Shown here: positions 2,873 through 64,000 of the stretch, one piece after another
Layout: each line of letters opens with the position of its first letter
Position numbering within the stretch: the stretch's first letter is position 1
NCBI GenBank assembly: GCA_947455605.1
Contig: CANGOX010000008.1
Location: forward strand, 112-64,111
Direction of reading: 5' to 3'
Length of the DNA stretch: 64,000 nucleotides
Source of the DNA: Chitinophagaceae bacterium
GTDB lineage: Bacteria > Bacteroidota > Bacteroidia > Chitinophagales > Chitinophagaceae
Program-made: the position numbers and the translations under genes
The notes under the pieces: model-generated
Seen by the model: the letters and a program-made list of their open reading frames with translations, nothing else
What the model was told of the DNA's origin: nothing
Database searches by the model: none

Positions 2873-2937
2873 CGTACCTTTGCACAGATTTGCGAATTCG
2901 CCAATCCGAAATCCGCTAATCCGTTAATATAAAGAAC

Positions 2938-3939
2938 GTGTCAGAAAGAAACAACTTCATAGATTATATCCGCATTTTTGCCCGTAGCGGGCACGGCGGC
3001 GCCGGTGTTACCCATTTTATGCGTAATAAGCTTACGGCCATGGGCGGACCTGATGGCGGCGATGGTGGTCGTGGCGGACATATCATCCTCCGTGGTAACA
3101 GCAATCTCTGGACCTTATTACACCTGCGTTATTTCAAGAACGTATTGGCCGACAACGGCGAGAATGGCAGCAAGAACAATTGCACCGGCCGTGATGGAAA
3201 AGATATTTATATAGATGTGCCACTGGGTACGGTTGCACGCGATGAAGAAACCGGCGAGAAAGAAGTTGAGATCCTGGAAGAAGGACAGGAAGTTATATGG
3301 CTAAAAGGTGGCCGTGGCGGCTTGGGTAATAGCAATTTTGCCACCCCTACCAATCAGGTACCTGAGCATTCACAACCCGGTGAAGAAGGTTCTGAAGGCT
3401 GGAAAAATCTCGAATTAAAAGTATTGGCCGATGTGGGATTGGTAGGCTTCCCTAACGCGGGTAAATCTACTTTGCTGTCTGTGATCACCGCAGCAAAACC
3501 TAAGATCGCTAATTATGCTTTTACAACCATTGTTCCACAATTAGGTATGGTAGAATATCGTGATCAGAAATCTTTCTGTATCGCCGATCTTCCCGGCATC
3601 ATCGAAGGTGCAGCAGAAGGAAAAGGTTTGGGCCATCGTTTTTTACGCCATATAGAAAGAAATTCAATTCTCCTGTTTTTACTTCCCGCAGATAGTGCAG
3701 ACCATGGAAAAGAGTTTGAGATCCTTCGTAATGAACTTGAACAATACAATCCTGAGATGCTGCAAAAAGATTTCATCATTGCGATCAGTAAAAGCGATAT
3801 GCTCGATGATGAATTAAAAGAAGCGATCAGCAAAGAATTACCCAAAGGCATTCCGCATGTGTTCATTTCATCTCTTACTAATAGCGGATTAACAGAATTA
3901 AAAGATCTGCTCTGGCAAACATTAAATAAACCTGCTTAG
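2938..3939 (+). CDS. obg: GTPase Obg/CgtA
   Basis: GTG start. Gly-rich Obg fold ([16 protein letters not shown]), G1 [10 protein letters not shown]3 [10 protein letters not shown]4 ISKSD. Confidence 0.95.
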
Positions 3940-4318
3940 TGCATTCTTAGTGCAACTCTGTGAACCCTGCGTTTCTGTGTTGAAAATAAATACCGATGTT
4001 GAAGAAACTCATTTCCCTATAGAATCAATGTGGCAAAGCGTTACAGAATAATATAAACTAACGTTCGTTAACCAATTCAGTAACATTAGCTTAACATTGA
4101 TACCCGGGTTACCTTTCTTCAATACCGGTATTAAGTGTATACATACGGGTTTTTGATGTACATCTAAATTTGAATTTGCCAATTCATTCCACCGCTACGG
4201 TACCTGTATTATTCTTCTGATTGTTTCTTCCATGTAAAAAATCTTTTGCAAGCCTGATAGGCCATGTAATGCCCATTAGTTCTAAAATAAAATTTATTAA
4301 TCGTTAAAACAATTTATT

Positions 4319-4747
4319 ATGAAAATGCAATCTATCAACACAATCGCAAAAAGGTTTTTCTTAGGCAACTTGTTAGTAGCAGCCATGTTTATGTCTGCCA
4401 GCGCAGCAACTCCTGCTTCTAATAACAAACCTTATTCTGTGATTGATGCTAACAAAGCAGAAGTTAAGTACACCGGTATTGACAAGTACAACCAGTTAAC
4501 CTTTAACGTTAAATACAGCAACCCTTCAGGTAATACCTTTAACCTGGTTGTTCTTGACGAAAATGGTGATCAGTTGTTCAAAGGTTACTATGGTGACAAA
4601 CAATTTGACAAAACTTTCAAATTGCCTAAATCAGAAGTAAGCAAACTCACTTTCGTGATTGAAGATGGTAAAGATTCTCTGAAAGAGAAATTCGATATCA
4701 ATATCAAAACACGCACTTACGAAGACGTGATCGTTAGCAAAGGATAA
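4319..4747 (+). CDS. Secreted hypothetical protein (signal peptide, beta-rich)
   Basis: N-terminal hydrophobic signal (LLVAAMFMSASAA). Preceded by about 380 nt of non-coding DNA and followed by a canonical terminator. No recognisable domain. Confidence 0.6.
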   Translation: MKMQSINTIAKRFFLGNLLVAAMFMSASAATPASNNKPYSVIDANKAEVKYTGIDKYNQLTFNVKYSNPSGNTFNLVVLDENGDQLFKGYYGDKQFDKTFKLPKSEVSKLTFVIEDGKDSLKEKFDINIKTRTYEDVIVSKG

Positions 4748-4776
4748 TTTCCGCTCAAACTAAAACTATGATGATG

Positions 4777-4807
4777 CACCGCTCCTGAAAAGGAGCGGTG
4801 TTTTTTT
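4777..4807 (+). terminator. Rho-independent terminator
   Basis: 9-bp GC stem caccgctcc/ggagcggtg (4777-4785 / 4792-4800), a 6-nt loop, then T7 (4801-4807). Confidence 0.85.
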
Positions 4808-4830
4808 GTGCAGTTGAGAGACAAAATTTC

Positions 4831-4856
4831 ACGCAAAGGCGCAAAGGCGCAGTTTG
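4831..4856. repeat. Stutter repeat, GCAAAGGCGC word family
   Basis: acGCAAAGGCGCAAAGGCGCAGttt. The same word occurs at 7127-7176, 8901-8929, 16477-16526 and 28789-28841. Confidence 0.7.
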
Positions 4857-4959
4857 GTTTCGATAGGATAGCATCTCTCAAAGAATGCAAGCATTCCAAA
4901 TGCACAGGGTGTTGAAATGAGGGTATTATTTTTTGAGATAAGAAAGATAATTTCAGGGT

Positions 4960-5151
4960 ATGCAATCCCAACCCTGCTTATTCTGCGGCCATACTGTACA
5001 ATTGGTTCATGTACATGGTCATTACCAGTGCCCGGTTTGTTTTACCAATGCCTTGCCTTGCTGTGATGGAGATAATTGCAGTACCAACCATTTATTACAG
5101 AATACCGAACAAGAAAAAAGCCATCCTGAGATGAATCAGAATGGCTCTTAA
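4960..5151 (+). CDS. Possible small zinc-ribbon protein (63 aa)
   Basis: CxxC-x14-CxxC (C6/C9, C24/C27) plus a CCDGDNC cluster. Converges on the typA stop 20 nt away. No family recognised. Confidence 0.35.
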   Translation: MQSQPCLFCGHTVQLVHVHGHYQCPVCFTNALPCCDGDNCSTNHLLQNTEQEKSHPEMNQNGS

Positions 5152-5171
5152 TGTATTTTGAAAGGTTCAGC

Positions 5172-8898: not shown

Positions 8899-8900
8899 AA

Positions 8901-44278: not shown

Positions 44279-44309
44279 AAAAAAACCATCGCCATAAAAG
44301 CGATGGTTT
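44279..44309 (-). terminator. Rho-independent terminator after coxIV
   Basis: 10-bp stem aaaccatcgc/gcgatggttt with a 7-nt loop and T7 on the minus strand. Confidence 0.75.
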
Positions 44310-44340
44310 AATAATTATTTGAAAAGATGACAAACGATTC

Positions 44341-44796: not shown

Positions 44797-44830
44797 AATA
44801 TCTTATTATAAAATTATCATATAAAAAATC

Positions 44831-44868
44831 TGTCCATTGTCCATAGACCATGGACCATGGTCTTGGTC
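44831..44868. repeat. Stutter repeat (GGACCATGG/TGTCCAT words)
   Basis: tgtccattgtccatagaccatggaccatggtcttggtc. The same words occur at 63308-63375. Confidence 0.7.
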
Positions 44869-45549: not shown

Positions 45550-45627
45550 GTTCTAAGTCTAAAGTTTCGTTACAAAAATATTGGCTACCGTTCAAAAAAG
45601 GTGAATAAACCTCAACTTTTTCTTCAA

Positions 45628-46206: not shown

Positions 46207-46361
46207 TATTTTTAATTAATAATTAAAAATTAGAAATTAATAATTTCTTGTGTTCGAACTTTGGTCCATTGATCAGCATCGTTGTGTCACTCACTTGTAC
46301 GTCCCTTTCGTTACGCATCATTAGATAATTACTAATTATTAATTACTAATTTCTAATTATC
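46207..46361. repeat. AT-only stutter arms flanking a 70-nt normal-composition core, inside the cox operon
   Basis: Left run 46207-46247 and right run 46318-46361. aattagaaatta (46228-39) pairs 12/12 with taatttctaatt (46347-58). Confidence 0.75.
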
Positions 46362-47329: not shown

Positions 47330-47393
47330 TTTCTAGTTCCGCTTAAAAACACAGATTTATTTATCTGTATTTTCTTTCTTTTAATCTGCGATG

Positions 47394-47426
47394 TAAAAAC
47401 AATGCTCCCGAAGTATCGGGAGCATT
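47394..47426 (-). terminator. Hairpin plus T-run after coxI (terminator or attenuator within the cluster)
   Basis: 11-bp perfect stem aatgctcccga/tcgggagcatt, a 4-nt loop, then gttttt on the minus strand. Confidence 0.5.
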
Positions 47427-47476
47427 GAATAATCTATTGATAACCGGGTAATATTTACTCGTTACCCGTAACTATT

Positions 47477-49291: not shown

Positions 49292-49355
49292 ACTCTGTTT
49301 CTTTAATTAGTTCTTTTCAACGTATCATCTTCCGAAATAGCCGGAAGAACATTAT

Positions 49356-50429
49356 TTACAATTTTGCTACTGTTTTTGTTGCTACGGCATCTACTGCTTT
49401 TACCGTTGTTTTGGTGGTGTCTGCTGCTTTTGCATTGGAAGGATCCTTATCAGGGAAAACTACCAGATATTGTGGTTTTTGTTTCGCCATCCACATATCG
49501 TACTCTTCCTGTTCTACTACTTCAATAATTCCTTTCATTGAATAGTGACCGTTACCACACATCTGGTCGCAGCTGATCTCGTACACGAAATTGGGGTTGT
49601 TGGTCAGCTCCTTCATTTCCTTGGTAGTATACTTAGGTGTAAACCACATGGTAGTTGGAATACCCGGAACAGCATCCATCTTTAAACGGAAATGAGAAAG
49701 ACCCACATCATGTATCACATCTCTTGAACCGATGATCAGTTTTACGGGCTTGCCTTTTATGAGGTAAACGGTTTGTTCGGTAACCACATCATCATGTCCT
49801 AACTGATCGTCCCATAACATACCTAATGTATTGGTAGCAGGATCAATGTTCTTGTAATATTTTTTACCAAAAGCACCGTCTTTACCCGGATATCGGAAGA
49901 TCCAGCCAAACTGTTTTCCGGTGATTTCTACAACCATCGCATCTTTGGGAGGTTCGCCTGTGAAGAGGAACCAGTTACGCAGACCTACAATTACGAGTAC
50001 CGTTAATACGATAGCCGGAACAATGGTCCATAAGGCTTCCAGTTTATTGCTGTGTGCGAAATAGAAAACTTTGCGGTTCTCTTTTTCCTGATATTTATAT
50101 GCAAACCAGAACAGGATGGCCTGGGTAGCTAAAAACACAGATCCGGTTACGGCAATGGTGATCCATAACATGGAATCCACGCGTGCACCTTCCACACTTG
50201 CCGAATCAACGGCCAGTAATGTTTTTGGAAAGTAGAGTTTGTTGCAATACCAAACACCGATCATTCCGAGTACCAGAAAGGCAACCATCAGAAAACCGTT
50301 CACTTTGTTATTCTGTCTGCGGCTTACATCTTCTCCTTTCAGAACAGATACATATTCACTGGCTTTAGCGATCTGGAAGATCACCAAGAAGATCAGCACA
50401 ACTACTGCTATGGTTAAAAACATTGTCAT
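49356..50429 (-). CDS. coxB: Cytochrome c oxidase subunit II (CuA), without a fused cytochrome c domain
   Basis: CuA ligands VIHDVGLSHF ... CDQMCGNGHYSM. There is no CxxCH motif anywhere in the protein. Confidence 0.9.
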   Translation of the reverse strand: MTMFLTIAVVVLIFLVIFQIAKASEYVSVLKGEDVSRRQNNKVNGFLMVAFLVLGMIGVWYCNKLYFPKTLLAVDSASVEGARVDSMLWITIAVTGSVFLATQAILFWFAYKYQEKENRKVFYFAHSNKLEALWTIVPAIVLTVLVIVGLRNWFLFTGEPPKDAMVVEITGKQFGWIFRYPGKDGAFGKKYYKNIDPATNTLGMLWDDQLGHDDVVTEQTVYLIKGKPVKLIIGSRDVIHDVGLSHFRLKMDAVPGIPTTMWFTPKYTTKEMKELTNNPNFVYEISCDQMCGNGHYSMKGIIEVVEQEEYDMWMAKQKPQYLVVFPDKDPSNAKAADTTKTTVKAVDAVATKTVAKL

Positions 50430-50476
50430 AACGCTATCAATATTATCTTATACTAACAATTATTCTTCAATAAAGA

Positions 50477-51706
50477 TTACACCTGGTGTATAATACTTTC
50501 TTTCAGGAACGGATGATGTTTAACGATCAGCGGTTTGCTGGCCAGTGAACGTCCTACAAACAGGATCATCAGACCCACAAACAGACTGAGGATTCCGAAA
50601 TCGAGCCAGCCAAGGGTTACATGATCTTTAGACAGGCTACCCATTACCATCTGGTAGAAATCGATCCAGTGTCCGAAAAGGATCAGCACTGCCATGAAAG
50701 TTACCATTGTATAATTTCTTTTGGCTGAGCGTTTCATCAGGATCAGCAAAGGACAGATAAAGTTGATGATCAGGTTCAGGAAGAAGATGCCTTTGTAAGG
50801 ACCCTGTACCCTGTGTTTGAAATAAACGGTTTCTTCCGGAATGTTCGCATACCAGATCAACATGAACTGGGAGAACCATAAATAGGTCCAGAAGATAGAG
50901 AAGGCAAACATGAATTTACCGATATCCTGTAAGTGTTCCTGGTTGGTATATTCAAGATATCCTTTGTTCTTAAGGTAGATGACCCATAAAGCGATCAATG
51001 ACATACCGGATACGAATGAGCTTGCAAATGTATACCAGCTGTACATGGTAGAATACCAATGTGCATCAATACTCATCATCCATAACCATGGAATGGTAGA
51101 ACCTACGGTTAAACCAAACCAAACGGTGAATAAAGCAGCGCGTACCGTATTACGTAAAATAAATCTTGCACCTGTTTCATGATCCATCGCTTCTTCATCC
51201 GCTTCTTTGCTGATCTGGCGCATTCTCCATCCCAACAGACTCCAGAGGCCGATAGCCAGGGTAGTCCAGATGATAAAGAATTTCGCATTTAAGAATCCTG
51301 ATTTACCAGAGAGGATCGGGTCTTTTGCAACCGCTTCTGTATCGAGCCAATGGTAGATAAAATGTTTATCGCTAACCACTACATAGATCAATACAACAAA
51401 GGTGATAGAACCAAAAATAGGCACCATCGTAGAAATGGCTTCGGGGATACGGCGGAACGACTGCTGCCAGCCACCCATGGCCAATGTGGTAACACAAATA
51501 AAGAACATACTGGCATTACATACCAAGGTCCAGAAGATCGTATTGTACATGAGTGTTCCCCAGAAATGTGCCTGCTCATGCTCATCGGAACTGAAACCTT
51601 TGGTAAAAAGGCCAATTGCAAATGCGGCCAAACCCACGCCGATCAAGGCCAGTGACCAGGTCTTCATCTTTCCGGGAATCTCAAATTGCTCTCTGATAGA
51701 TGCCAT
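50477..51706 (-). CDS. actF: Alternative complex III subunit ActF (NrfD-like membrane subunit)
   Basis: About 10 TM helices. Paralogous in pattern to ActC, and in the canonical ACIII gene-order position. Confidence 0.8.
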   Translation of the reverse strand: MASIREQFEIPGKMKTWSLALIGVGLAAFAIGLFTKGFSSDEHEQAHFWGTLMYNTIFWTLVCNASMFFICVTTLAMGGWQQSFRRIPEAISTMVPIFGSITFVVLIYVVVSDKHFIYHWLDTEAVAKDPILSGKSGFLNAKFFIIWTTLAIGLWSLLGWRMRQISKEADEEAMDHETGARFILRNTVRAALFTVWFGLTVGSTIPWLWMMSIDAHWYSTMYSWYTFASSFVSGMSLIALWVIYLKNKGYLEYTNQEHLQDIGKFMFAFSIFWTYLWFSQFMLIWYANIPEETVYFKHRVQGPYKGIFFLNLIINFICPLLILMKRSAKRNYTMVTFMAVLILFGHWIDFYQMVMGSLSKDHVTLGWLDFGILSLFVGLMILFVGRSLASKPLIVKHHPFLKESIIHQV

Positions 51707-51776
51707 TGTTAATCTCTTTTATATCAGTTATTACTATCTCCCTCTCTACCAGCCGGCAGAGAAAAATTAAATTTAT

Positions 51777-52409
51777 TTACTTAGCTGCAGGTGCTGCCGG
51801 AGCAGGTGCTGCAGATGCTTTTGCTTTTTGTTGCTGGTTCTTGATGTAACGGATCACCATCCAACGCTGTTTGCGGCTCAGTTGTGATGCATAAGAGCCC
51901 ATCAGGTTCTTACCATACGCTACTGAGTAGAACATTTGTCCTTCAGGCATTACAGATACCAGCGGATCAGCAATCAGGTTCTTGGGTGCTACAGGGTAAG
52001 GACCGGTACCGTCTTTGTAAAGGGGGCCATTACCATTCAGTTTAGCGCCATGACAGATACCGCAGTTGATGAGATATAAACGCTCAGCTTCTGCTTCCTC
52101 TTTTGTTGACAAAGAATCGATCGGGCTTTTTACCTGCCTGGAAGCAAAATAGTTAGCAGTATCACCCGCTTTGTCTTTTGCGTAAGGGAAAGGCATTTCC
52201 TCTTCACGTGAAATGGTTCCTGCAACAGGCATATTGGTATAATTGATACCCGCCTCTTTCAGGTTGCTGTGGTCGGCATATGTTTCGTAAGCGCGGCTGT
52301 AAGCCATATCCGGCATGTAAACACTACCCGGCTTGCGTTTTACATCGCTGCAGCTTACGATCACTGCTGCGGCAGACAAAACAGTTATGATTGCTAATTT
52401 ATTCATCAT
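51777..52409 (-). CDS. actE: Alternative complex III subunit ActE (monoheme cytochrome c lipoprotein)
   Basis: Lipobox VSCSD and a single CGICH heme motif. Ala/Pro-rich tail. Confidence 0.85.
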   Translation of the reverse strand: MMNKLAIITVLSAAAVIVSCSDVKRKPGSVYMPDMAYSRAYETYADHSNLKEAGINYTNMPVAGTISREEEMPFPYAKDKAGDTANYFASRQVKSPIDSLSTKEEAEAERLYLINCGICHGAKLNGNGPLYKDGTGPYPVAPKNLIADPLVSVMPEGQMFYSVAYGKNLMGSYASQLSRKQRWMVIRYIKNQQQKAKASAAPAPAAPAAK

Positions 52410-52428
52410 GAGTCTATTCTAATAATAA

Positions 52429-53019
52429 TTAAGCAGCTACAGTTTGCTTGTTTTCAAAAGGTAATTCATCCTGGTCGTACCGTCCTAACCACCAGCCTTC
52501 TTCCGCTACCTGAATATCGGTTTCAACAGCGCCATTGCTGGCCAGGAATGATTTCAGATCTTCTGCATTGGTTTTTTCGGTACACTCAATCACCATTACA
52601 AACAGATCATCTGTGGCACGTGCATGGAAATGGTGCTTTTTTACAAAAGGCGCCATCTGGCAGAGATAACAGAAGGTCAACACCATACCTACCGCAGCAA
52701 ACAATACCGTTAACTCGAAAGTGATGGGTATCCAGGCCGGTAAGGCAAAGTGTGGCTTACCGCCAAAGTTCAACGGCCAGTCTTTTGCCAATATCCAGCT
52801 GATACAGCCTAATGCAGTAGAGGTTCCGGTTATACCGTAAATAAAGCCGGCAGTATGCAGACTGGTCTCTCTCAGACCCAGTGCATGGTCCAGTCCGTGT
52901 ACCGCAAACGGCGTATACACATCATGGATCTTGTAACCTGCTTTGCGCACTTTTGATACTGCAGGAAACAACACTTCCTCATCATCAAAACAGCCAACTA
53001 CGAATTTCTTTTTTGCCAT
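52429..53019 (-). CDS. actD: Alternative complex III subunit ActD (DUF3341)
   Basis: A soluble N-domain followed by 2 TM helices. Position between actC and actE. Confidence 0.8.
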   Translation of the reverse strand: MAKKKFVVGCFDDEEVLFPAVSKVRKAGYKIHDVYTPFAVHGLDHALGLRETSLHTAGFIYGITGTSTALGCISWILAKDWPLNFGGKPHFALPAWIPITFELTVLFAAVGMVLTFCYLCQMAPFVKKHHFHARATDDLFVMVIECTEKTNAEDLKSFLASNGAVETDIQVAEEGWWLGRYDQDELPFENKQTVAA

Positions 53020-53067
53020 ACAAAACTTCCCTTTCAGGAATTTATTGTTAAAAAATGATCTTCCTTT

Positions 53068-54543
53068 TTATGAATGAGACGCCCCATCGTTCTCTACCGT
53101 AGTGTGTCCATGACCACTATGTGCAAATACTTCGGGAGCAACATGCTCCAGATGTCCCATCTTATCTTTATAACTCTCTCCTGTTGTTTTCAATACATAC
53201 TTGATCTCTGCAATAGCAATTACCGGGAAATATTTGGCAAACAGGAAGAAGCAGGTAAAGAACAATCCGAAGGTACCGGCATAGAAACCGATCTCCCAGA
53301 TGGTTGGGCTGTAGTAAACAGACCAGCTTGATGGCAGATAATCGCGGTACAATGAAGTAACGATGATCACAAAGCGCTCAAACCACATACCGATGTTCAC
53401 GATGATACTCATGAAGAAGGTGACAAATAAATTCCTTCTCATTTTACGGAACCAGAAGATCTGCGGGCTTAATACGTTACAAGCCATCATACCCCAGTAG
53501 CTCCATCCATAAGGACTGAACAGGTAAGCACGGCTGTACCAGAATGTGTAACCTTCAAATTTGTTCTGGCTATACCAACCCATGAACAGTTCTGTTAAGT
53601 AGGCGATACCTACGATAGAACCGGTTAATACAATTACTTTATTCATCGCCTCAATATGACCGAGGGTGATGTAGTCTTCCATTTCAAATACTTTGCGGAT
53701 GATCACCATCAGGGTCTGCACCATGGCAAAACCAGAGAAGATCGCACCGGCAACGAAGTAAGGAGGGAAGATGGTAGTATGCCAACCCGGAATTACGGAG
53801 GTGGCGAAGTCAAAGGATACAATTGTGTGTACAGACAATACCAGTGGTGTACTTAAACCGGCCAGAACCAGTGAAAGACTCTCATGACGCTGCCAGTGTT
53901 TGGTAGAACCGTTCCATCCGAAAGAAGCTACACCGTATAAACGCTTACGCAGTTTGGTGAAAGCACGGTCACGAACAGTTGCCAGATCCGGTAACAGACC
54001 ACTATACCAGAATAAAAGTGATACAGTAAAATAAGTAGAGATCGCAAATACGTCCCACAACAACGGTGAGTTAAAGTTCACCCATAATGGTCCACGAGTA
54101 TTAGGATAAGGTAATACAAAGAAAGCCATCCACACACGGCCCATGTGCCAGATCGGGAACTGGCCCGCACACATTACCGCGAAGATCGTCATCGCTTCAG
54201 CCGCACGGTTCACACCTGTTCTCCATCCCTGGCGGAACAGTAACAGGATCGCAGAGATCAGCGTTCCTGCGTGACCGATACCTACCCACCATACGAAGTT
54301 GGTAATATCCCAACCCCAACCAACGGTCTTATTCAGGTTCCACTGGCCGATACCATAGGTAACATCCCTGTAAATAGAGTACACACCAAATAACAATACG
54401 GCCACCGCGATGTAAAACCCTACATACCATAAACGGCTGGGTTTTGCTTCAATCGGGCGAACGATATCTTCTGTTACCTGGTGATAGGTTTTGTTCCCAT
54501 TCACCAATGGTTCCCTAAGCTGTGATTCGTACTTTAAATGCAT
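53068..54543 (-). CDS. actC: Alternative complex III subunit ActC (NrfD/PsrC-like quinol-binding subunit)
   Basis: About 10 TM helices of the polysulfide-reductase NrfD pattern. His-rich C-terminus. Confidence 0.85.
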   Translation of the reverse strand: MHLKYESQLREPLVNGNKTYHQVTEDIVRPIEAKPSRLWYVGFYIAVAVLLFGVYSIYRDVTYGIGQWNLNKTVGWGWDITNFVWWVGIGHAGTLISAILLLFRQGWRTGVNRAAEAMTIFAVMCAGQFPIWHMGRVWMAFFVLPYPNTRGPLWVNFNSPLLWDVFAISTYFTVSLLFWYSGLLPDLATVRDRAFTKLRKRLYGVASFGWNGSTKHWQRHESLSLVLAGLSTPLVLSVHTIVSFDFATSVIPGWHTTIFPPYFVAGAIFSGFAMVQTLMVIIRKVFEMEDYITLGHIEAMNKVIVLTGSIVGIAYLTELFMGWYSQNKFEGYTFWYSRAYLFSPYGWSYWGMMACNVLSPQIFWFRKMRRNLFVTFFMSIIVNIGMWFERFVIIVTSLYRDYLPSSWSVYYSPTIWEIGFYAGTFGLFFTCFFLFAKYFPVIAIAEIKYVLKTTGESYKDKMGHLEHVAPEVFAHSGHGHTTVENDGASHS

Positions 54544-54680
54544 CTGGTCTTGTTTAGTAGTCCATCCCGCTTGTGGCGGAATAGTATTTTTTATTGAATC
54601 AACTTTTGTTCTCTATCAACTTCGTTGTGCCTGTTCCGACTTTAGCGGGATCGTACACTTCAACTTTCTGTTCACCTTTA

Positions 54681-54765
54681 TTGCGAGGAGGAACAACGAA
54701 GCAATCTCATCAATGCCTGCTTATCCTTATTCGGAACACAGGCTGCTTCGTTCCTCGCAGTGACG
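54681..54765. repeat. Palindrome of the GAGGAACGAAGC family inside the act operon (actB-actC gap)
   Basis: ttgcgaggaggaacaacgaagca pairs with ctgcttcgttcctcgcagtgacg. The right arm is near-identical to 18264-18285. Confidence 0.8.
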
Positions 54766-54768
54766 TTC

Positions 54769-57700
54769 TTATGCGTGCTCTTTCTTTTCTTCTTTTTTCT
54801 CAGCACCTTTCTTCTCCTTGCCGGCCTCATGTGCTTCATCTGCGTTACGCACTTTAGCCATGTAAGTAACATTCGGTAACACGTGTAACTGCTCTAACAC
54901 ATAGAACTGGCGGTTAGGGTTTTCTTTGCGTGTTTTGCTGATACTACTTTGTTTATCGTTGGCATTACCAAAATTGATGGCGTTGGTAGGACAAGCCTGC
55001 TGGCAAGCTACTTTCAGATCGCTGTCAACCATGGGTCTGCTTTCTTTCTTGGCTTTCAGTTTGGCTTCCTGTAAACGCTGTACGCAGAAAGAACATTTTT
55101 CGATCACACCACGTGAACGCACGGTTACATCCGGGTTCAACACCATGCGTGTGAGGTCGTCGTTCATATCCAGTACCACATCGTTCACAATACCTTCCTG
55201 GTTATTAGGGAAGCTGTCGGCTCCTGTGTAATCGGCCCAGTTAAAGCGGCGTACTTTATAAGGACAGTTGTTGGCACAATACCTTGTACCGATACAACGG
55301 TTATAAGTCATCTGGTTCAACCCTTCAGAACTGTGGTTGGTAGCAGCAACCGGACAAACGTTCTCACAAGGAGCGTTATCACAATGCTGACACATCAAAG
55401 GCTGGAATACCACGTTTGGATTATCCATATCACCGCTGAAATAACGGTCGATACGTAACCAATGCATTTCATGGCCACGGAGTACTTCCGGTTTACCTAC
55501 TACTGAAACGTTGTTCTCTGCATTACACGCCACAACACAGGCAGCACAACCGGTACAGGTGTTCAGATCCACACTCATGCCCCATTTGATACCCGGTCTG
55601 TCGTAAACAGGATAGATCGTACCCTGACTTTCGAATTTCTCCAATCCACCGTAAGGCTTAAGTTCTGCTTCGCGCTCATCACGGATCTCGGTTGGATTTT
55701 CTTTATAGGCAGCCAGTGTTAATTCTTTCATTACCTCGGTACGATTACCTTGCTCGGTATCGTAACGGCTATGGGTTTGTGTTAAGGCAACCGGATATTT
55801 TTCGCCGGTTGAAACGATGGTAACATCTGTATTCACAAAACTTACAGAAGCACCACTCAAGGTTGCAAAAGGAAATGCATTCTTACCGGTTCCTACCACA
55901 GATTTACCCAGTTTCTCGCTACGGCCATAACCAACAGCGATCGCAATGGTATCAGGGTGCGTACCCGGAATGATCAGGGCTGGTAATTCAACACTCTTAC
56001 CGTTAACGGTAACTTTTACTACTTTCTTCGGTGGATTTACTTCGTAAGAATCTGCCTGGCCACCATTGTTCAGATCAATGTCCAACAAGGTCTTTGCCAA
56101 AGCAGGGGAAACAATTACGTAGTTATCCCAGGTAGCACGTGTAACCGGATCTGGTAATTCCTGCAACCATGGGTTAGCAGCACCTTGTCCGGCACCGATG
56201 CCTATTTTTTCGTAGAGAACCAATTCAATTTTACCGCCTTTCTTTCCTGAACCTAATGCAGTAACCGCATTGGCCACAGCGCTGCTGTTGAAAGAAGCAC
56301 TTGCTAAAGTACCGGCAGAAGGATTTAATACACCATCCTGCAAAGCCTTGTTCCATCCGGATTCTCCACCCAGTTTCGCGCTCCAGAAAGTTTTCAGGAA
56401 AGCGAGATAGTCGGAAGGATTACCTGCCCATTTGAGGAGACTGTCCTGCCACTGGCGGGTTTTGAATAAAGGATAGATCGTTGGCTGTAAGAAAGAGTAA
56501 TGGCCTGTTGTTGCTTCTGCATCACCCCAGCTTTCGAGGTAGTTATGATCGGGGATCACAAATTTGCAGAGCTCAGCAGTTTCATCCAGTTTGCTATTGA
56601 AAGAAACGGTTGTTTTTACTTTTTTCAATGCGGCTTTGAACTTATCAGCATCGAACCAGCTGTATGCAGGATTAGCTCCGTGGATGAATAACGAACCAAC
56701 AGAACCTGCGTTCATATCTTCTACCAGTTTAGCGAAATCTGCATCCACACCCTGGCGGATATTGGAAGTAGCAGACCAGTCGATGGTTTTACCACCTGCA
56801 CCGATCGCTTCGTTGATCGCATTTACTGCAATCTGAACATTTACATCATTGCTGCCGGCCACTACTAAAGCAGCGCCTTTGTTAGCAGCTAACATTTTAG
56901 CCGCTTTTTCAATACCGGCTTTCAGTTTGGCATCGCTGATACCTGCAGCACCCTGACCGTTAACGGCACTTAATAAAGCAGCTACCACCGCACCTGTTTC
57001 AGATGGACGGTGTAAATATTTTTCATCCGCGTTAGAACCTGTTAAGCTGGCAACACTTTCAAAATGAATGTGCTTGCTCATTTCAGGATTCTTCTCGTCT
57101 AATTTTTTACCGGTTGCGTATTGTTTCGCAAATTCGATCGGGCTGAGCCAGGTACCTAAGAAATCGGCACCGATACTTACGATCGCTTTCGCATTTTCGA
57201 AATGATAAGAAGGGATGGCTTTTTTACCGTAAGTAGCTTCATTGGCCAATAAAATACCGCTATAAGAAATAGCATCATAGGTTACATGGCGGCTGCCCGG
57301 GTATTTTGCCAGGAACTGGCTGATAGCTTCTTTGGTAGAAGGGGAAGTGATGGTACTGGTTACAATCACAACCGGACCGCTCAAAGAAGAAGCCACTGCT
57401 TTATCGATTGCCTCAAACGTTACTTCTTTTCCTTCAATGGTTGGGAAACGTAAACGGGCAGTATCATATAGATCTAACACTGAAGCCTGAACACGGGCAG
57501 AAGTACCGCCTTTGGTGAGCGGGCTCAGGTCATTACCTTCAATTTTGATCGGACGTCCGTCGCGCACTTTCGCCAAAACGCTTACCACATCTCCATCCTG
57601 CACATAAGTAGTTGCATAATACTTAGAGATACCGGGAACTATATCTTCGGGTTTATTGGCAAATGGGATTGCCTTTTTTACAGGCATTTCGCAACTTGCC

Positions 57701-57894
57701 GCTACCGCAGCTGCAGCCGTGCTGAAACCGAGATACTTTAAAAAGTCCCTGCGTGGCGCTTTTGTTCCTAAAAAGCTTGCGCTTTCCTCAGACACAAAAG
57801 GAAGTTCTTCTTTGAATTCGTCTTTAACGTCTTTGTTGTAGGCTTCAGACTGATTCAGCTCTCCAAAACTTTGCCAGTGCTTTTTTTGCTCCAT
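54769..57894 (-). CDS. actB: Alternative complex III subunit ActB (molybdopterin-oxidoreductase-like domain fused to an Fe-S domain)
   Basis: Twin-arginine signal RRDFLKYLGFSTAAAA. Four Cys clusters (CTGCAACVVAC, CQHCDNAPCENVCP, CIGTRYCANNCP, CQQACP). 1041 aa. Lys/Glu-rich tail. Confidence 0.9.
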   Translation of the reverse strand: MEQKKHWQSFGELNQSEAYNKDVKDEFKEELPFVSEESASFLGTKAPRRDFLKYLGFSTAAAAVAASCEMPVKKAIPFANKPEDIVPGISKYYATTYVQDGDVVSVLAKVRDGRPIKIEGNDLSPLTKGGTSARVQASVLDLYDTARLRFPTIEGKEVTFEAIDKAVASSLSGPVVIVTSTITSPSTKEAISQFLAKYPGSRHVTYDAISYSGILLANEATYGKKAIPSYHFENAKAIVSIGADFLGTWLSPIEFAKQYATGKKLDEKNPEMSKHIHFESVASLTGSNADEKYLHRPSETGAVVAALLSAVNGQGAAGISDAKLKAGIEKAAKMLAANKGAALVVAGSNDVNVQIAVNAINEAIGAGGKTIDWSATSNIRQGVDADFAKLVEDMNAGSVGSLFIHGANPAYSWFDADKFKAALKKVKTTVSFNSKLDETAELCKFVIPDHNYLESWGDAEATTGHYSFLQPTIYPLFKTRQWQDSLLKWAGNPSDYLAFLKTFWSAKLGGESGWNKALQDGVLNPSAGTLASASFNSSAVANAVTALGSGKKGGKIELVLYEKIGIGAGQGAANPWLQELPDPVTRATWDNYVIVSPALAKTLLDIDLNNGGQADSYEVNPPKKVVKVTVNGKSVELPALIIPGTHPDTIAIAVGYGRSEKLGKSVVGTGKNAFPFATLSGASVSFVNTDVTIVSTGEKYPVALTQTHSRYDTEQGNRTEVMKELTLAAYKENPTEIRDEREAELKPYGGLEKFESQGTIYPVYDRPGIKWGMSVDLNTCTGCAACVVACNAENNVSVVGKPEVLRGHEMHWLRIDRYFSGDMDNPNVVFQPLMCQHCDNAPCENVCPVAATNHSSEGLNQMTYNRCIGTRYCANNCPYKVRRFNWADYTGADSFPNNQEGIVNDVVLDMNDDLTRMVLNPDVTVRSRGVIEKCSFCVQRLQEAKLKAKKESRPMVDSDLKVACQQACPTNAINFGNANDKQSSISKTRKENPNRQFYVLEQLHVLPNVTYMAKVRNADEAHEAGKEKKGAEKKEEKKEHA

Positions 57895-57900
57895 CTTCTT

Positions 57901-58061
57901 AATTTGAAAATTTGAGAATTTGAAAATTTGAAAATGCAGTTAGCTTATTTCAATTCTCTATTCTTATTCAATTATTTTTATAAAAGACTTGAAGACCTGA
58001 GGTTATCTGAAATCCGAAAATGTTCCATTTTCAAATTTTCAAATGCTCAAATTTTCAAATT
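57901..58061. repeat. 36-bp-arm stutter palindrome (TTTGAAAAT words) inside the act operon (actA-actB gap)
   Basis: 57901-57936 pairs 35/36 with 58026-58061, with an 89-nt loop. Confidence 0.95.
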
Positions 58062-58062
58062 A

Positions 58063-59319
58063 TTAATAGTGACATTTCTGACATTCGGTACCACCAATCT
58101 TTGCTACGGTAATGCCTTTGGTACTATCTAGCTTGCCGCTTTTCAGATCCTGATGGTATTTCTCATAAATACTGTAGAAACCATTGTCTTTGAACTGAAC
58201 CTGTGTAGTACGGTGACAGTTGATACACCAGCCCATGCTCAGGTCGGTAAACTGTTTTACCTCGTCCATTTTCTGGATCTCTCCGTGGCAGGTTTGACAG
58301 GCAACCTGGCCTGCTTTCACGTGCTGTGAGTGATTAAAGTAAACGTGGTCGGGCAGGTTGTGGATACGTGCCCACTCAACCGGTTTTGCTTTAGAAGCAT
58401 CCCATGGTTTGCCCTCTTCAAAACCGGCATATTTGTATAATTTCTTGATCTCTGCGGTAGCGTTCACTTCCTGGCCTTCTTCATTGTAGATCTTCTCTCC
58501 TTTATATTCATTGATCGCCATGTGGCAGTTCATACAAATATTTACAGAAGGGATGGTAGCCTGTTTGCCCTGGTAAACACCCACGTGGCAATACTGACAG
58601 TTGATCTGGTTGACACCAGCGTGAACTTTATGAGAGTAATAGATAGGCTGTTCGGGTTGGTAATCTTTGCTGCGGCCCAGTCCCATAGCTCCTACAGAGG
58701 TCCAGTAACCACCGATCACAAACAAGATCACAGTAACCAGCGCTATATAGCTTTTGTTCTTCCAGAAAGGAACGGGTTCAACTGAAGGATGTCCTTCACG
58801 GTCATCAGCCAGTTTCTTCAGGTTGGCATTTACCTGTAATAAGGTAAGGGCAACAACGGCGAGAATCAGGGTGAGGATACCGAATAATAAAGTGTTATCA
58901 CCTTCCTGACCTTTGGCATCAGCAGGATTGGCTGCTGTTGCAGGGCCTGTGCCCGGTGCAGGAACGGTTTTGATATAACCCAGGATGGCGTCTATTTCCT
59001 TATCAGTGAAGTTAGGAAACAGGTTCATCGCTGTTTTATTGTACTCATTGTACAGGTTATTGGCATAAGCATCTCCTGTTTTCAGGAAAGCGGCGCTGTT
59101 CTTGATCCAGGCATGCAGCTTGGTCTTATCGGGCCAACGATCTTCCACACCGGCAAGGGCCGGGCCGGTCATTTTTTTGTTTACTGCGTGGCAGGAAGCA
59201 CAATTTGTCTGAAACAGGGTTTTCCCGTCTTGTGCATTTGCTGAAGTACCCAATAATAAACTAAGGGAAAGGATGGTTCCGGTTAAACAGGTCTTGGCTA
59301 AACGTCTAAAAGATATCAT
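58063..59319 (-). CDS. actA: Alternative complex III subunit ActA (multiheme cytochrome c) with an extra N-terminal cytochrome c domain
   Basis: Six CxxCH motifs (CASCH, CQYCH, CMNCH, CQTCH, CINCH, CQKCH). Signal peptide from ATG 59319. Two TM helices separate the first heme domain from the pentaheme domain. The ORF is open to 59385. Confidence 0.85.
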   Translation of the reverse strand: MISFRRLAKTCLTGTILSLSLLLGTSANAQDGKTLFQTNCASCHAVNKKMTGPALAGVEDRWPDKTKLHAWIKNSAAFLKTGDAYANNLYNEYNKTAMNLFPNFTDKEIDAILGYIKTVPAPGTGPATAANPADAKGQEGDNTLLFGILTLILAVVALTLLQVNANLKKLADDREGHPSVEPVPFWKNKSYIALVTVILFVIGGYWTSVGAMGLGRSKDYQPEQPIYYSHKVHAGVNQINCQYCHVGVYQGKQATIPSVNICMNCHMAINEYKGEKIYNEEGQEVNATAEIKKLYKYAGFEEGKPWDASKAKPVEWARIHNLPDHVYFNHSQHVKAGQVACQTCHGEIQKMDEVKQFTDLSMGWCINCHRTTQVQFKDNGFYSIYEKYHQDLKSGKLDSTKGITVAKIGGTECQKCHY

Positions 59320-62361: not shown

Positions 62362-62460
62362 TTAGTTTTTGCGAAAGCCTTTTGTTAATAATACGATCAC
62401 AAATACAATCAGCAGGCATGCCAGACAGGCCACGATCAGCTTTTGCCAATTGTTTTTCAT
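62362..62460 (-). CDS. Possible 32-aa single-TM micro-protein (below the ORF-track cutoff)
   Basis: ATG...TAA translates to MKNNWQKLIVACLACLLIVFVIVLLTKGFRKN. The stop lies 10 nt upstream of the DUF2892 ATG, on the same strand. Confidence 0.3.
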   Translation of the reverse strand: MKNNWQKLIVACLACLLIVFVIVLLTKGFRKN

Positions 62461-62579
62461 GTGGCAAATCTATCTAAACCGCGTAGAGCTTTTGCTGATG
62501 GGCGTCAGGGTAAGCTTCTGTTTGACGAGAAATAGCGGTGATTGTTGTCAGGTTGGTGGGCTGAAGCGTTTTCCGGCCG

Positions 62580-63230
62580 CTAGCCAGGCATTCTTGAAAT
62601 GTATTTCTCAATTTCTTTCACCTGATCCAGTACCTGCTTGGTTTTTGGCTTGCAGGCTTTGGCTCTGCGGAAGAAATCTTTCGCTGCCCTGAATTCCCTT
62701 TTATTCATAAAGATCTGGCACATGCTGAGATAAGCCACCGCTTCACTTTCTTTATCAGAGATACCGGCACGGATAGCGGCACGGATATAGTTCTCACCTT
62801 GCTTCAGATCGCCTCGCTGCATAGCCATCATACCCAGCTGCAGTTTATTGGCACCTTCTGCTTCAGGCATAGGCGAACCCAGATCGGAGCTCATTTTGAG
62901 GTGTTTTTCGGCAGAATCGAAATCCTGCTTCATCATGGCCAGGTTGCCTTTGATGGTATAATAAGTAGATCGTACAGGTTTATACAACAGACCGGGATAC
63001 CATATCGTAGCTAAAATCTTTTCTACTTCTTCTATATTACCCGCTTCCATGGGTTCCTGGATCAGACGCATGGGCCCTATAAAGAAATGGCTGGCCAGCG
63101 CGATCACTCCAATAAAATAAAGGATAAAAGAAGGCCAGAAACCGCTGGTTACATTCACCAGCACAGCCAGACCTATGGCCAATAAGCCCAACCAGAAACG
63201 ATACTTGATGATTATATTATAAAACTTCAT
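62580..63230 (-). CDS. Membrane-anchored TPR-like repeat protein
   Basis: Two N-terminal TM helices followed by helical repeats with a TPR-like A/G/Y pattern. Confidence 0.6.
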   Translation of the reverse strand: MKFYNIIIKYRFWLGLLAIGLAVLVNVTSGFWPSFILYFIGVIALASHFFIGPMRLIQEPMEAGNIEEVEKILATIWYPGLLYKPVRSTYYTIKGNLAMMKQDFDSAEKHLKMSSDLGSPMPEAEGANKLQLGMMAMQRGDLKQGENYIRAAIRAGISDKESEAVAYLSMCQIFMNKREFRAAKDFFRRAKACKPKTKQVLDQVKEIEKYISRMPG

Positions 63231-63264
63231 AGGTCATTTTTGAGAGGGGCAAAGATAGCGGAAA

Positions 63265-63294
63265 GTTTGGGGTTTGGAGTTTGGGGTTTGGAGT
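63265..63294. repeat. Stutter repeat GTTTGGGGTTTGGAGT x2
   Basis: gtttggggtttggagtttggggtttggagt, the complement of the word run at 7223-7281. Confidence 0.8.
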
Positions 63295-63307
63295 AAAAAA
63301 GGAAAAA

Positions 63308-63375
63308 GTCCATGGTCGATAGACCATAGTCCAAAGCTGATTCCTGCTATGGACCATCGACCATGAACTATGGAC
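63308..63375. repeat. Stutter palindrome (GGACCAT/ATAGACCAT words)
   Basis: gtccatggtcgatagaccatagtcc pairs with ctatggaccatcgaccatgaactatggac. Confidence 0.75.
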
Positions 63376-63381
63376 TCTCTA

Positions 63382-63858
63382 TTAATTCTTAGCATCATTC
63401 ACTTCTATCCAGTAGCCATCGGGATCGGTTACCCATACCTGTTTTACACCGTCTATACGGTTAGTGATCTCGCCTTTTACGCCTTTGGAGTTGTAGAAGG
63501 GTAGATTATTAGCTTTTACTTTTTGTACAAAAGCCTCGGTATTGGGTACACTAAAACAGGTATGCTGGTTAAGAAAGTATTCTTTGGGCTTATCTGCTCC
63601 CTGTATCACATGCATGGCTACGCCTGGGGCAATGGAATACCAGATATGTTTTCCATCATGAAAAGGCTCCGGAATGGTATCGAAGCCGAATAAGGCATCA
63701 TAAAAGGTTCTGGTTTTCTCCAGGTCTACCACAAAAATGGCTACGTGGTTGAGGACGGCTTTGGGCTTGGTTTGGGCCGTTGATTGGTTGGGAGTTAAAA
63801 GGGTTAAAGAGGTAAAAATGGTTAAAAGGGTTGCGAAAGCAGGTCGAAAGAGTTTCAT
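63382..63858 (-). CDS. VOC-family (glyoxalase/bleomycin-resistance/dioxygenase fold) protein with a signal peptide
   Basis: LNHVAIFVVDLEKTRTFY...GYWIEV pattern. N-terminal hydrophobic signal. Confidence 0.75.
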   Translation of the reverse strand: MKLFRPAFATLLTIFTSLTLLTPNQSTAQTKPKAVLNHVAIFVVDLEKTRTFYDALFGFDTIPEPFHDGKHIWYSIAPGVAMHVIQGADKPKEYFLNQHTCFSVPNTEAFVQKVKANNLPFYNSKGVKGEITNRIDGVKQVWVTDPDGYWIEVNDAKN

Positions 63859-63960
63859 GGGTTGTATTTATGCACTGAAAGTACTGAAGAATAAGGAATT
63901 AGCCCTCAAACCGAATCTCTTGCAGGCTGAATAGGAGAATCTATTATTTTTGCAGCCCTT

Positions 63961-64000
63961 GGGGGGAATTAAAAATTAATAATTAGCAATTAAAAATTAC
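63961..64000. repeat. AT-only stutter run (AATTAAAAATTAATAATTAG family), cut by the window end
   Basis: ggggggaattaaaaattaataattagcaattaaaaattac, nearly the same words as 46207-46247. Confidence 0.6.

Follow-up and report, generated by a model that had tools for sequence, protein, structure and literature searches.

Intergenic palindromic repeats with arms of tandem 7-8-nt words in a Chitinophagaceae genome and its relatives

We analysed a 64,000-nt stretch of the genome of a Chitinophagaceae bacterium (GenBank assembly GCA_947455605.1, contig CANGOX010000008.1, positions 112 to 64,111 of the forward strand; hereafter the window), whose intergenic gaps had been reported in a preliminary description, made from the sequence alone, to carry "stutter palindromes", that is, hairpins in which one arm is an imperfect tandem run of a short word and the opposite arm a run of the complementary word. 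The window has a GC content of 42-43% and its genes are typical of the Bacteroidota housekeeping set (GH97, GH2, BipA, Obg and RNase HII), with a respiratory cluster on the minus strand that runs from actA to DUF420 (58063..42778) and comprises alternative complex III (ACIII) and cytochrome oxidase (cox). The window contains no tRNA genes, and an Rfam search over its whole length at gathering thresholds returned no match. Scanning GTDB species-representative genomes with BipA retrieved Chitinophagaceae only, which upholds the earlier placement of the host in the Bacteroidota, family Chitinophagaceae, and gave as top match a Sediminibacterium metagenome-assembled genome (MAG; OZ242223.1, hereafter L002). 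Since the proteins that adjoin BipA are merely 83-96% identical between L002 and the window despite a 100% identical BipA, L002 is a close, syntenic relative and a different genome from that of the window. The window genome is Sediminibacterium-like. In L001, the BipA protein is likewise identical to that of the window and the BipA DNA is ~96% identical. The comparative set consists of the window and 161 loci (~2 Mb); 12 orthologous gaps allow a comparison of the window with L002 and with four to five other species.

In the 64 kb we curated 27 stutter elements with 7-8-nt units, of which 20 have two arms and 7 have one. They occur at a density of ~1 per 2.4 kb and their arms sum to 1505 nt, or ~20% of the intergenic DNA. 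The elements are listed here, all entered without a strand; the evidence for each stands in brackets (TRF, Tandem Repeats Finder), and a stroke separates left from right arm in two-armed elements.

e01, 2892-2927: one-armed AATTCGCC/AATCCGA/AATCCGCT/AATCCGTT of the GCGGATT family, directly after a promoter-like GTACCTTTGCA box; a single unit in L002 (TRF, sequence).
e02, 4831-4856: one-armed CGCAAAGG x2.5, GCAAAGG family; the L002 ortholog is a complete two-armed palindrome (TRF).
e03, 7078-7281: outer palindrome with arms 7078-7110 (GGAGTCT/GGAGTTG) and 7223-7281 (AACTCC, then AAACCCC x7), e04 lying in its loop; the right arm enters the 3' end of ORF (open reading frame) 7269-8387 (-), and arm length and unit type vary in L001, L002 and L003 (TRF, gap fold, inverted-repeat scan).
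e04, 7127-7176: GCGCCTTTGCACCTTTGCG / CGCAAAGAGGCAAAGGCGC, loop 12 nt, GCAAAGG family, C-first; aligns with unlinked copies along its full length (gap fold, inverted-repeat scan).
e05, 8421-8511: GCGGATTTGCAGATGACGGATT / GAATCTGCGAATCTGCGC in a divergent gap; a GCGGATT array is kept in L002 and L018, its partner in L002 being a CACAGATT element (TRF, gap fold).
e06, 8903-8952: weak palindrome GCACGCTAAGGCGCAAGGGCG / CGCGCCGCTGCGTG; only a 12-nt remnant in L002 (gap fold).
e07, 10047-10127: palindrome GTTAGGAGTCTGGAGTA / TACTCCAGACTCCTAACTCCAGACTCC, co-directional genes on both sides (gap fold, inverted-repeat scan, z = -8.2).
e08, 14618-14684: palindrome (GCGGATT/A)n / AATCCGCTAATTCGCC; arms of 28 nt and a loop of 3 nt in L002, one arm only in L003 (TRF, gap fold, inverted-repeat scan, RNA fold).
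e09, 16470-16530: CCTTCGCGCCTTTGCGG / CCGCAAAGACGCGAAGG, C-first, in a convergent gap (TRF, gap fold, inverted-repeat scan, alignment).
e10, 20330-20419: palindrome AATTAGTAATTAATAGTTAATAATT / AATTAGTAATTACTAACTA (TRF, gap fold, inverted-repeat scan, self-BLAST).
e11, 23110-23192: ATTTTGGAATTTTGAAATTG... palindrome that occupies a whole convergent gap (TRF, gap fold, inverted-repeat scan, z = -8.9).
e12, 27237-27311: CGTGAGCCGTAAATCGTTAGTCGTGAG / CTGACGATTCACAACTCACG in a divergent gap (gap fold).
e13, 28789-28841: GAAACTGCGCCTCTGCGTG / CACAAAGGCGCAGTTTC, GCAAAGG family, in a convergent gap (gap fold, alignment).
e14, 31692-31726: one-armed, GCGGATT family, G-rich on the + strand (TRF, gap fold, self-BLAST).
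e15, 31746-31795: one-armed TCATTCAC/TCATTCTA x6, C-rich on the + strand; with e14 it forms a non-complementary array pair, G then C (TRF, gap fold, array-pair count).
e16, 35617-35674: CGTGAGTGGTGAGTGATGG / TACTCACTACTGACGTCTCACGACTCACG in a convergent gap (TRF, gap fold).
e17, 38892-38983: palindrome GAACATTAGAATAGATGAACAAGGAACAGATGAATG / ...CCTGTTCTTCTGTTCATCTG (TRF, gap fold).
e18, 42664-42755: (ATTGGGAA)n / (AATTTCCC)n with a 20/20 core, in a convergent gap (TRF, gap fold, inverted-repeat scan, z = -5.6).
e19, 43363-43448: (TGGTTTAT)n palindrome with the SCO1 and DUF420 genes on either side (TRF, gap fold, inverted-repeat scan, RNA fold).
e20, 44832-44868: TGTCCATTGTCCATAGACCATGGACCATGGTC, with the self-complementary word GGACCATGGTCC (TRF, gap fold).
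e21, 46213-46360: (TAATTAA/AATTAGA)n / (TAATTAC)n, loop 88 nt, ctaB and coxIII on either side (TRF, gap fold, inverted-repeat scan).
e22, 57900-58062: (AATTTGAA)4 / (TTCAAATT)4, 36/37, loop 89 nt, actA and actB on either side; a variant unit is mirrored across both arms (gap fold, inverted-repeat scan).
e23, 59827-59921: GTTAGGAGTTAGGAGTCTGGAGTCTGAAGTTG / CAACTCCAGACTCCAGACTCCAGACT, in frame in the DUF6787-PurN linker (inverted-repeat scan, RNA fold).
e24, 61902-62145: (CGTGAGA/CGTGAAT)x15 and (GTGAGTA)x6 at 61902-62047, (TTACTTA)n at 62112-62145; the largest array, with ~21 units over 146 nt (TRF, gap fold, self-BLAST).
e25, 63264-63294: one-armed (GTTTGGGGTTTGGA)x2 (TRF, gap fold, self-BLAST).
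e26, 63307-63375: palindrome GTCCATGGTCGATAGACCATAGTCC / GGACCATCGACCATGAACTATGGAC (gap fold, inverted-repeat scan).
e27, 63967-64000: AATTAAAAATTAATAATTAGCAATTAAAAATTAC array truncated by the window end (TRF, gap fold).

Several analyses speak for the reality of these repeats. First, the 62 rows returned by TRF collapse to 41 merged arrays with periods of 6-9, nearly all of period 7 or 8 (21 and 18 rows, respectively), and 30 of the 41 arrays are intergenic, though intergenic DNA makes up 11.6% of the bases. Thirty dinucleotide-preserving shuffles, run separately on coding and intergenic segments, gave ~5 arrays in total and ~1 in intergenic DNA, so the intergenic enrichment that had been proposed as a check is evident. 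Second, an ungapped scan for inverted repeats (arms of at least 14 nt, at least 82% complementary, loop of at most 150 nt) found 22 in the window, and in 14 of these the arms show a 7-8-nt periodicity (autocorrelation of at least 0.68), compared to 2-10 inverted repeats and 0-1 periodic ones (mean ~0.05) in each of twenty block shuffles. Third, folding of every gap placed a word run on one side and the complement run on the other, with RNA-fold z-scores of the elements from -4.4 to -8.9. Arms match at 23/25 positions for 10043-10067/10096-10120 (with a perfect 17-18 bp core), 30/33 for 23110-23142/23160-23192 (the outer 20 perfect), 20/20 for 42679-42698/42732-42751 and 36/37 for 57900-57936/58026-58062, and the complementarities quoted previously are correct or conservative (20/20 at 42679, 36/37 at 57900, outer 20 at 23110). 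Fourth, a repeated 6-mer is common to 35 element pairs, versus 11.9±2.9 expected and a maximum of 24 among 1000 internal word permutations, and in a self-BLAST of the window all dispersed matches are stutter arrays, except for the GAGGAACGAAGC element described below. Within the window, the words thus recur at unlinked loci above the expectation for its composition, and TRF, the inverted-repeat scan, folding and the permutation null agree with the preliminary description in depicting non-coding, hairpin-forming repeats with a shared vocabulary. An assembly artefact was ruled out because orthologous elements are present in many independent assemblies.

Other parts of that description had to be revised. 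Nearly every gap had been said to carry a hairpin; stutter elements occur in only 22 of the 44 gaps of at least 40 nt, and what holds is that, as we read the folds gap by gap, some strong hairpin is present in ~35 of the 44, ordinary T-tract terminators making up at least six of these. The word TGGTTTAT, taken as confined to a single locus, has further occurrences in L002, L003 and L007, where it lies outside the part matching the window. The palindromes placed at 18163-18285 and 54681-54765 (GAGGAACGAAGC) are not stutter palindromes: they represent a separate element, misfiled among the stutter repeats, that resembles transposable elements of the miniature inverted-repeat type (MITEs), measures ~85-125 nt and has 22-30-nt terminal inverted repeats, CGTCAYTGCGAGGAACGAAGCA(R)YCTG, around a variable interior of ~25-85 nt. 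Copies lie at 18161-18287 and 54681-54767 in the window, one of them between actB and actC, and at 4123-4263 in the Ilyomonas locus L035; no target duplication is evident at these copies. The statement that terminal inverted repeats are lacking therefore fails for this group, as the terminal inverted repeats of MITEs are found in the separate CGTCAYTGCGAGGAACGAAGC element, with its variable interior. Membership of the GAGGAACGAAGC element in the CGTC class of repetitive extragenic palindromic (REP) sequences was rejected: its ends start with CGTC, but it lacks the 8-9-bp stem-loop of that type.

The strongest regularity, absent from the preliminary description, is a G-first polarity of the arms. 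Over the ~2 Mb, the 5' arm is G-rich and C-poor in 58 of 68 inverted repeats with periodic arms and C-rich in 10, whereas ordinary inverted repeats of the same DNA divide into 142 G-first and 137 C-first (Fisher p = 1e-7). With 26% G, 9% C and no T/A bias in the 5' arms, a T/A or purine basis of the polarity was ruled out, the bias being specifically one of G versus C. Likewise, where one gap holds two TRF arrays whose GC skews are opposite, the pair is convergent in 36 cases and divergent in 1, and this rule holds in every gap type and includes pairs of non-complementary words. More than a dozen unrelated words obey the polarity, in counts that are not phylogenetically independent, and the C-first exceptions within the window all belong to the GCAAAGG family. 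Because single arrays lack a sense preference (43 sense-G versus 44 sense-C in co-directional gaps) and the rule spans all gap types, polarity is a property of how pairs arise or survive, not of transcription; on the same 43:44 ratio, we judge Rho/rut avoidance, R-loops and non-template deamination unlikely as its cause. It would result either from selective loss of one orientation or from directional synthesis of the second arm from the 3' side of the G-rich strand.

Orthologous gaps reveal that the elements stay while their units turn over. At the gap 10041-10162 (e07), a GGAGT-type stutter hairpin is present in the window, L002, L018 and L033, stutter palindromes of other words in L003 and ordinary hairpins in L007 and L008; the promoter-proximal sequence on the flank is conserved. 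The four GGAGT versions differ in the order and number of units and their loops cannot be aligned: there are ~2.5-3.5 units per arm in the window versus four on both arms in L002, and the L033 arms consist of GTTTGGGGTTTGGAGTTTGGGG and its exact reverse complement. Substitutions can be unit-wide, as with GGCGCAAAG in every window unit versus GGCACAAAG in L002, or GCAGATTC in the window versus CACAGATT in L002; a species-specific template behind them was ruled out because L002 holds both GTGCC and GCGCC variants. Between L001 and the window, one arm of e03 differs by five units and the other in unit type (AGACTCC to AAACCCC), and the e04 hairpin has diverged by ~20%. Because near-identical strains already differ to this extent at e04, the near-perfect arms (36/37 and 20/20) would be either very young or actively corrected. 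Judged from these alignments, the position of an element persists across species, its loop and the number and sequence of its units turn over extremely fast, and both arms usually change in concert. The comparison of orthologous gaps that had been called for thus revealed the polymorphism of unit number and arms among relatives, with position mostly kept and copies not perfectly conserved. We also observed that the AAACCCC array at 7223-7281, 5 units longer than in L001, extends past the stop-codon region of ORF 7269-8387 (-), and the last residues of the encoded acyltransferase-like protein are therefore repeat-encoded.

The dispersal of the elements differs between families. The window, L002 and L003 contain ~2-3 inverted repeats with periodic arms per 10 kb, most other loci have none, and the window words recur mainly within the clade of the window, non-orthologous sites included. 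The window, L002, L003, L007 and L033 are rich in stutter elements, and L006, L017 and L054 are poor in them. The same architecture is built from other words in several Chitinophagaceae loci (AATAAGGT/ACCTTATT, GTGCCTTG/CACCAAGG, AAGTCAGT/ACTGACTT and GGGTTAAAG/CCTTTAACC). GCAAAGG elements at 7118-7182 and 28784-28846, the L002 gap-3 copy and the one-armed 4806-4862 are mutually alignable, though unlinked, in the arms, a portion of the loop (GAGCAAAtttTAC) and the flanking sequence outside (AAACTG...CAGTTT), and the CACAGATT elements of two L002 loci and of L024 align end to end with variant units in the same order. As unlinked copies align over arms, loop and flanks, the members of these two families are probably copies of each other, a REP-like behaviour that comes with the full-length consensus typical of REPs. 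Copies of the GGAGTCT and AT-rich families, by contrast, have the word alone in common and yield no such consensus.

We favour, with a probability of about 0.55, the interpretation that the elements are several families of palindromic repeats, extragenic and occasionally intragenic, with arms of tandem 7-8-nt words, constituting a Chitinophagaceae counterpart of the short tandemly repeated repetitive (STRR) and long simple sequence repeats (LSSR) of cyanobacteria with REP-like behaviour, and that they are shaped by slippage and templating. Slipped-strand mispairing would expand, contract and homogenise the units, complementarity would be kept or regenerated by strand switching within the molecule, templated by the hairpin, or by an equivalent conversion between arms, and whole units copied now and then to new intergenic sites would give rise to dispersed families. 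When transcribed, the elements may form very stable stem-loops that act, by analogy with REPs, as structures at mRNA 3' ends or between cistrons and in some cases as terminators, and would therefore be tolerated and positionally persistent at gene ends. A number of observations weigh against this interpretation. Slippage within pre-existing hairpins predicts no polarity, yet 58/68 and 36:1 were found, and therefore a polar step is missing from the model. The loops of most GGAGTCT copies are mutually unrelated, which disfavours whole-unit transposition for this family. A GTAG/CGTC tag lies within 8 nt of an end in 1 of 19 two-armed elements (null 1.5±1.2), the best flanking direct repeat averages 1.9 nt (null 1.8±0.4), and no transposase, nuclease candidate or other mobiliser was seen among the window ORFs. 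That e04 has decayed fast in L001 points to weak selection for pairing, the RNA role is purely inferential, and the DNA examined comprises only 64 kb of the window genome and ~2 Mb of relatives. The flanking repeats, being at null level, agree with the earlier report of no target duplication; the analogy drawn there to REPs and to bacterial interspersed mosaic elements (BIMEs) applies to behaviour (dispersed, intergenic and intra-operonic families) and does not extend to the defining tag, which is absent.

Alternatively, the elements could be non-autonomous mobile elements, akin to MITEs or to REPs and their hairpin-forming doublets (REPINs), with the words serving as binding or cleavage sites of a transposase encoded elsewhere and the polarity reflecting a fixed orientation of the ends. 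We consider this unlikely, although in its favour the unlinked copies of the two alignable families are homologous over their full length, also across genera, the families are limited to one clade, the inward orientation is fixed as in terminal inverted repeats, and a CACAGATT element stands in L002 at what is an empty gap in the window (2240-2260), with A-rich sequence on both sides that might be a target duplication. Against it stand the tag and direct-repeat frequencies at null level and the lack of a transposase within the window; moreover, the loops are unrelated between most copies and even between orthologs, unlike the conserved interior of MITEs, and non-complementary array pairs share the same polarity. 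The seemingly empty 8899-9041 site in L002 retains loop remnants and is therefore better explained by deletion than by insertion. CRISPR arrays, with 21-48-nt repeats and unique spacers of similar length, had been excluded at the outset, correctly so because the 7-8-nt units here abut head to tail without spacers.

Ordinary locus-specific intrinsic terminators or attenuators, with stems that are repetitive by chance, are an improbable explanation, although some observations lend them credit: 7 of 8 convergent gaps hold an element versus 15 of the 36 remaining ones (p = 0.046), five convergent gaps have no strong hairpin besides the stutter one, the L024 copy of the CACAGATT element has a T6 run on one strand, and a hairpin keeps its place even in relatives whose hairpins there are ordinary. 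On the other hand, most elements lack a T-run on either strand, with a mean of ~3.5 T in the 10 nt past the stem compared to 8-9 for the canonical terminators t1, t5 and t6 of the window; e04, e13 and e26 depart from this on one strand. Ordinary T-run terminators do exist in the window (4776-4806, 19222-19249, 38843-38868, 44283-44309, 47400-47427 and 62059-62098), and the last of these, canonical and bidirectional with its T-tracts, lies exactly in the "loop" of e24 with arrays on both sides, such that each transcript would hold the proximal array only. Elements also occupy divergent gaps (e05 and e12), a coding linker (e23) and, as in the classical REP situation, the spaces between genes of the ACIII-cox cluster (e19-e22), while inter-locus word sharing is above chance and ordinary inverted repeats show no G-first polarity. 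The stutter elements are thus mostly not canonical intrinsic terminators, and the earlier judgement that termination alone is insufficient stands. Given the convergent-gap enrichment and the sole hairpins in five such gaps, a role at RNA 3' ends is plausible.

The coding linker belongs to ORF 59556-60506 (+), a fusion of DUF6787 and PurN (Formyl_trans_N) found in >100 homologs of 293-342 aa. Here e23 separates the two domains and is read in frame as LGVRSLESEV...TPDSRLQT, without an internal PurN start codon after the palindrome, in line with the earlier claim that one element lies inside an ORF. In many homologs the linker reads LGV[RW]SLESGV...QTPNSKLQT, which is translated GGAGTYTGGAGTCT...AGACTCCAAACTCC, and there are others with different repeat-encoded linkers or with short ones. 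The DNA of metagenome relatives has in-frame GGAGTCT palindromes of 100-220 nt at this place in L084, L085, L092 and L098, and non-complementary array pairs (CGTGAGG... with ...CCACAGA) in L082, L083 and L089. The linker, which carries an in-frame element in many species, is hypervariable in length and largely heptamer-array-encoded.

About as improbable as the terminator reading is a purely local, de novo origin by slippage and template switching on any hairpin or seed, with shared words due to mutational or compositional convergence. This would accommodate the variation of unit count and sequence between very close genomes, the many lineage-specific words of other Chitinophagaceae, the words GGAGTCT, GGAGTTT and GGGGTTT, which lie one transition apart and interconvert, and the e07 right arm, which merges into conserved flank (CCACAACTTTCC in L007/L008) as a possible seed. 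It does not fit the sharing of words far over a composition-matched null, the full-length homology of copies in two families, the occurrence of the same words at non-orthologous sites in several species or the strong polarity, which is unexpected from slippage in random hairpins.

It is also conceivable, if quite doubtful, that the arrays are written not by hairpin slippage but by reiterative polar DNA synthesis at two 3' ends that face a break or a cleaved hairpin tip. We raise it because G-rich arrays run 5'->3' towards a common centre even if they are non-complementary, and single arrays ignore transcription. A repair polymerase, primase-polymerase or reverse transcriptase would then act in a geometry reminiscent of telomere healing, the words would represent the template set of short sequences of this enzyme and the loops would be filler DNA. 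Selected binding-site arrays for a sequence-specific nucleic-acid-binding protein with a ~7 nt footprint are very hard to credit: the word is conserved at orthologous sites across species, the PurN linker included, and a 7-8-nt unit fits the CspB heptamer footprint cited with MacGregor's proposal that cold-shock-domain proteins are candidate binders of TAACTGA repeats (PMC4679880), but a single genome uses at least ten unrelated words, these are freely replaced at orthologous sites, single arrays have no sense or antisense preference (43:44) and no candidate protein was identified.

The preliminary description knew of no family with this architecture in Bacteroidota, but the architecture does have precedents: there are convergent inverted heptamer pairs in Xanthomonas, heptamer LSSR/STRR in cyanobacteria and heptamer arrays in a few Bacteroidetes. 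Full-text literature searches yielded no description of a multi-word palindromic form in Bacteroidota. The closest precedents are the Xanthomonas GGGAATC repeats in architecture, STRR/LSSR in unit size and word multiplicity, REP/BIME in behaviour and the Rickettsia palindromic elements (RPE) in in-frame tolerance. Xanthomonas has 70-75 GGGAATC pairs per genome, with arrays close together on opposite strands and "convergent" (Rehm et al. 2015, PMC4692102), in positions that are usually conserved between species while length and sequence vary (PMC4692102). Both systems are intergenic tandem heptamers with G-rich arrays converging, and Xanthomonas appears to share the G-convergent polarity; arrays of the same word on opposite strands with converging G-rich strands are found here too (20 two-armed elements, 58:10, 36:1). 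In Xanthomonas, with a genome of 65% GC, a single G-tract word that has the potential for a G-quadruplex is dominant, whereas here at least ten 7-8-nt words, mostly without G-runs, occur in a 43% GC genome, some families have conserved loops and flanks and one copy lies in a coding linker; only the GGGGTTT arrays (7223-7281 and 63264-63294) have runs of at least 3 G or C.

The cyanobacterial STRR heptamers and 5-11-nt LSSR (Mazel 1990, Mrazek 2007, as cited in PMC4692102 and PMC4679880) are similar, so far as these citing papers relate, in having a ~7-nt unit, several words per genome, a mostly intergenic location and a sporadic phylogenetic distribution, and polymerase slippage is the origin proposed there (PMC4692102, PMC4679880). 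The head-to-tail units in longer-than-expected arrays and the intergenic bias that mark LSSR/STRR are both seen in the window (41 arrays versus ~5 shuffled; 30 of 41 in 11.6% of it). Unlike the present elements, STRR/LSSR are described in those papers mainly as direct arrays, with no polarity rule or arm co-evolution reported, and Rehm et al. found few inverted pairs in Nostoc (PMC4692102). REP/BIME/REPIN sequences of Proteobacteria (Di Nocera 2013, PMC3733652; Bertels & Rainey 2011, PMC3116915) are likewise dispersed imperfect palindromes of extragenic DNA that are often found in operons and downstream of genes and sometimes in genes, with fast gain and loss between strains, and are thought to act as RNA hairpins. 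REPs are, however, single 20-40-nt stem-loops with a GTAG or CGTC tag, the GTAG type being tied to REP-associated tyrosine transposases (RAYT), whereas the present elements lack a tag, their tandem-word arms measuring 14-146 nt and their loops reaching ~130 nt. TAACTGA direct repeats occur in Beggiatoaceae, cyanobacteria and five Bacteroidetes, and Gramella and Aequorivita have long intergenic heptamer arrays that are missing from close relatives (MacGregor 2015, PMC4679880). These, too, are intergenic heptamer arrays, but of a single word, with 169 direct sets versus 1 indirect and no palindromic pairing, and they often stand immediately upstream of start codons in a fixed orientation. DNA uptake sequences (DUS/USS) consist of one 9-12-nt word that is over-represented throughout a genome, genes included, unlike the many different words here.

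RPEs were reportedly described by Ogata et al. in 2000 as palindromic elements inserted in frame in genes, and like e23 they are palindromic repeats tolerated in frame in a coding gene. They are 100-150-nt elements conserved in sequence over their full length, whereas e23 is a palindrome of word arrays whose words vary between species. RPEs have also been equated with CGTC REPs (PMC3733652).

Heptamer and octamer arrays have been known for decades (cyanobacteria, Xanthomonas, Beggiatoaceae and a few Bacteroidetes). The clade studied here is an unusually dense, multi-family case in which unit turnover, arm co-evolution and family spread can be read from alignments of graded relatives, and the polarity rule is a concrete constraint on any model of how such repeats arise. 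The elements also give rise to spurious ORFs and to low-complexity linkers in frame; in Chitinophagaceae MAGs they are likely to be hotspots of assembly error and of polymorphism between strains, and they could serve as strain markers.

We made several further observations in the window. Relatives conserve the boxes of the GTACCTTTGCA type found at 2875-2885, 7013-7023 (-) and in other gaps, which precede starts by ~25-60 nt; they match the Bacteroidetes -7 promoter motif TAnnTTTG, and the GCGCCTTTGC word of the C-first family resembles them. A 379-nt non-coding stretch at 3940-4318, upstream of ORF 4319-4747 (142 aa, no Pfam match), has long blocks conserved in L002, L003, L007, L008 and L018 (e.g. 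GGTATTAAGTGTATACATACGGGTTTTTGATGTACATCTA), and could be an unclassified leader or small RNA; an Rfam search of 3900-4340 gave no match even at E<=1. Inside an apparent 424-nt gap, a small Cys-rich ORF of 63 aa at 4960-5151 (+; …CLFCGH…HGHYQCPVCFTNALPCCDGDNCSTN…) is conserved at the DNA level in L002, L003, L007, L008 and L033, and beyond e24 the region 62150-62580 has small unannotated ORFs only. Among viral contigs (L162-L231, IMG/VR), the pattern GGAGTCTGGAGTCTGGAGT matches 70, mostly of 0.6-0.66 GC, with one-armed (AGTCTGG)3-15 arrays, often TTTTAGTCTGGAGTCTGGAGTCTGGAGTCTGGCTAAGG followed by G/T-rich repeats, upstream of one conserved gene; we ruled these out as the same phenomenon, the heptamer being shared but architecture and host range being different. 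Finally, a small GC hairpin, CCGGCTTAGCCGG(GAC), lies beside stutter elements at unlinked loci in two genomes (window ~42756-42772 and the L085 purN linker) and may be another short dispersed palindrome.

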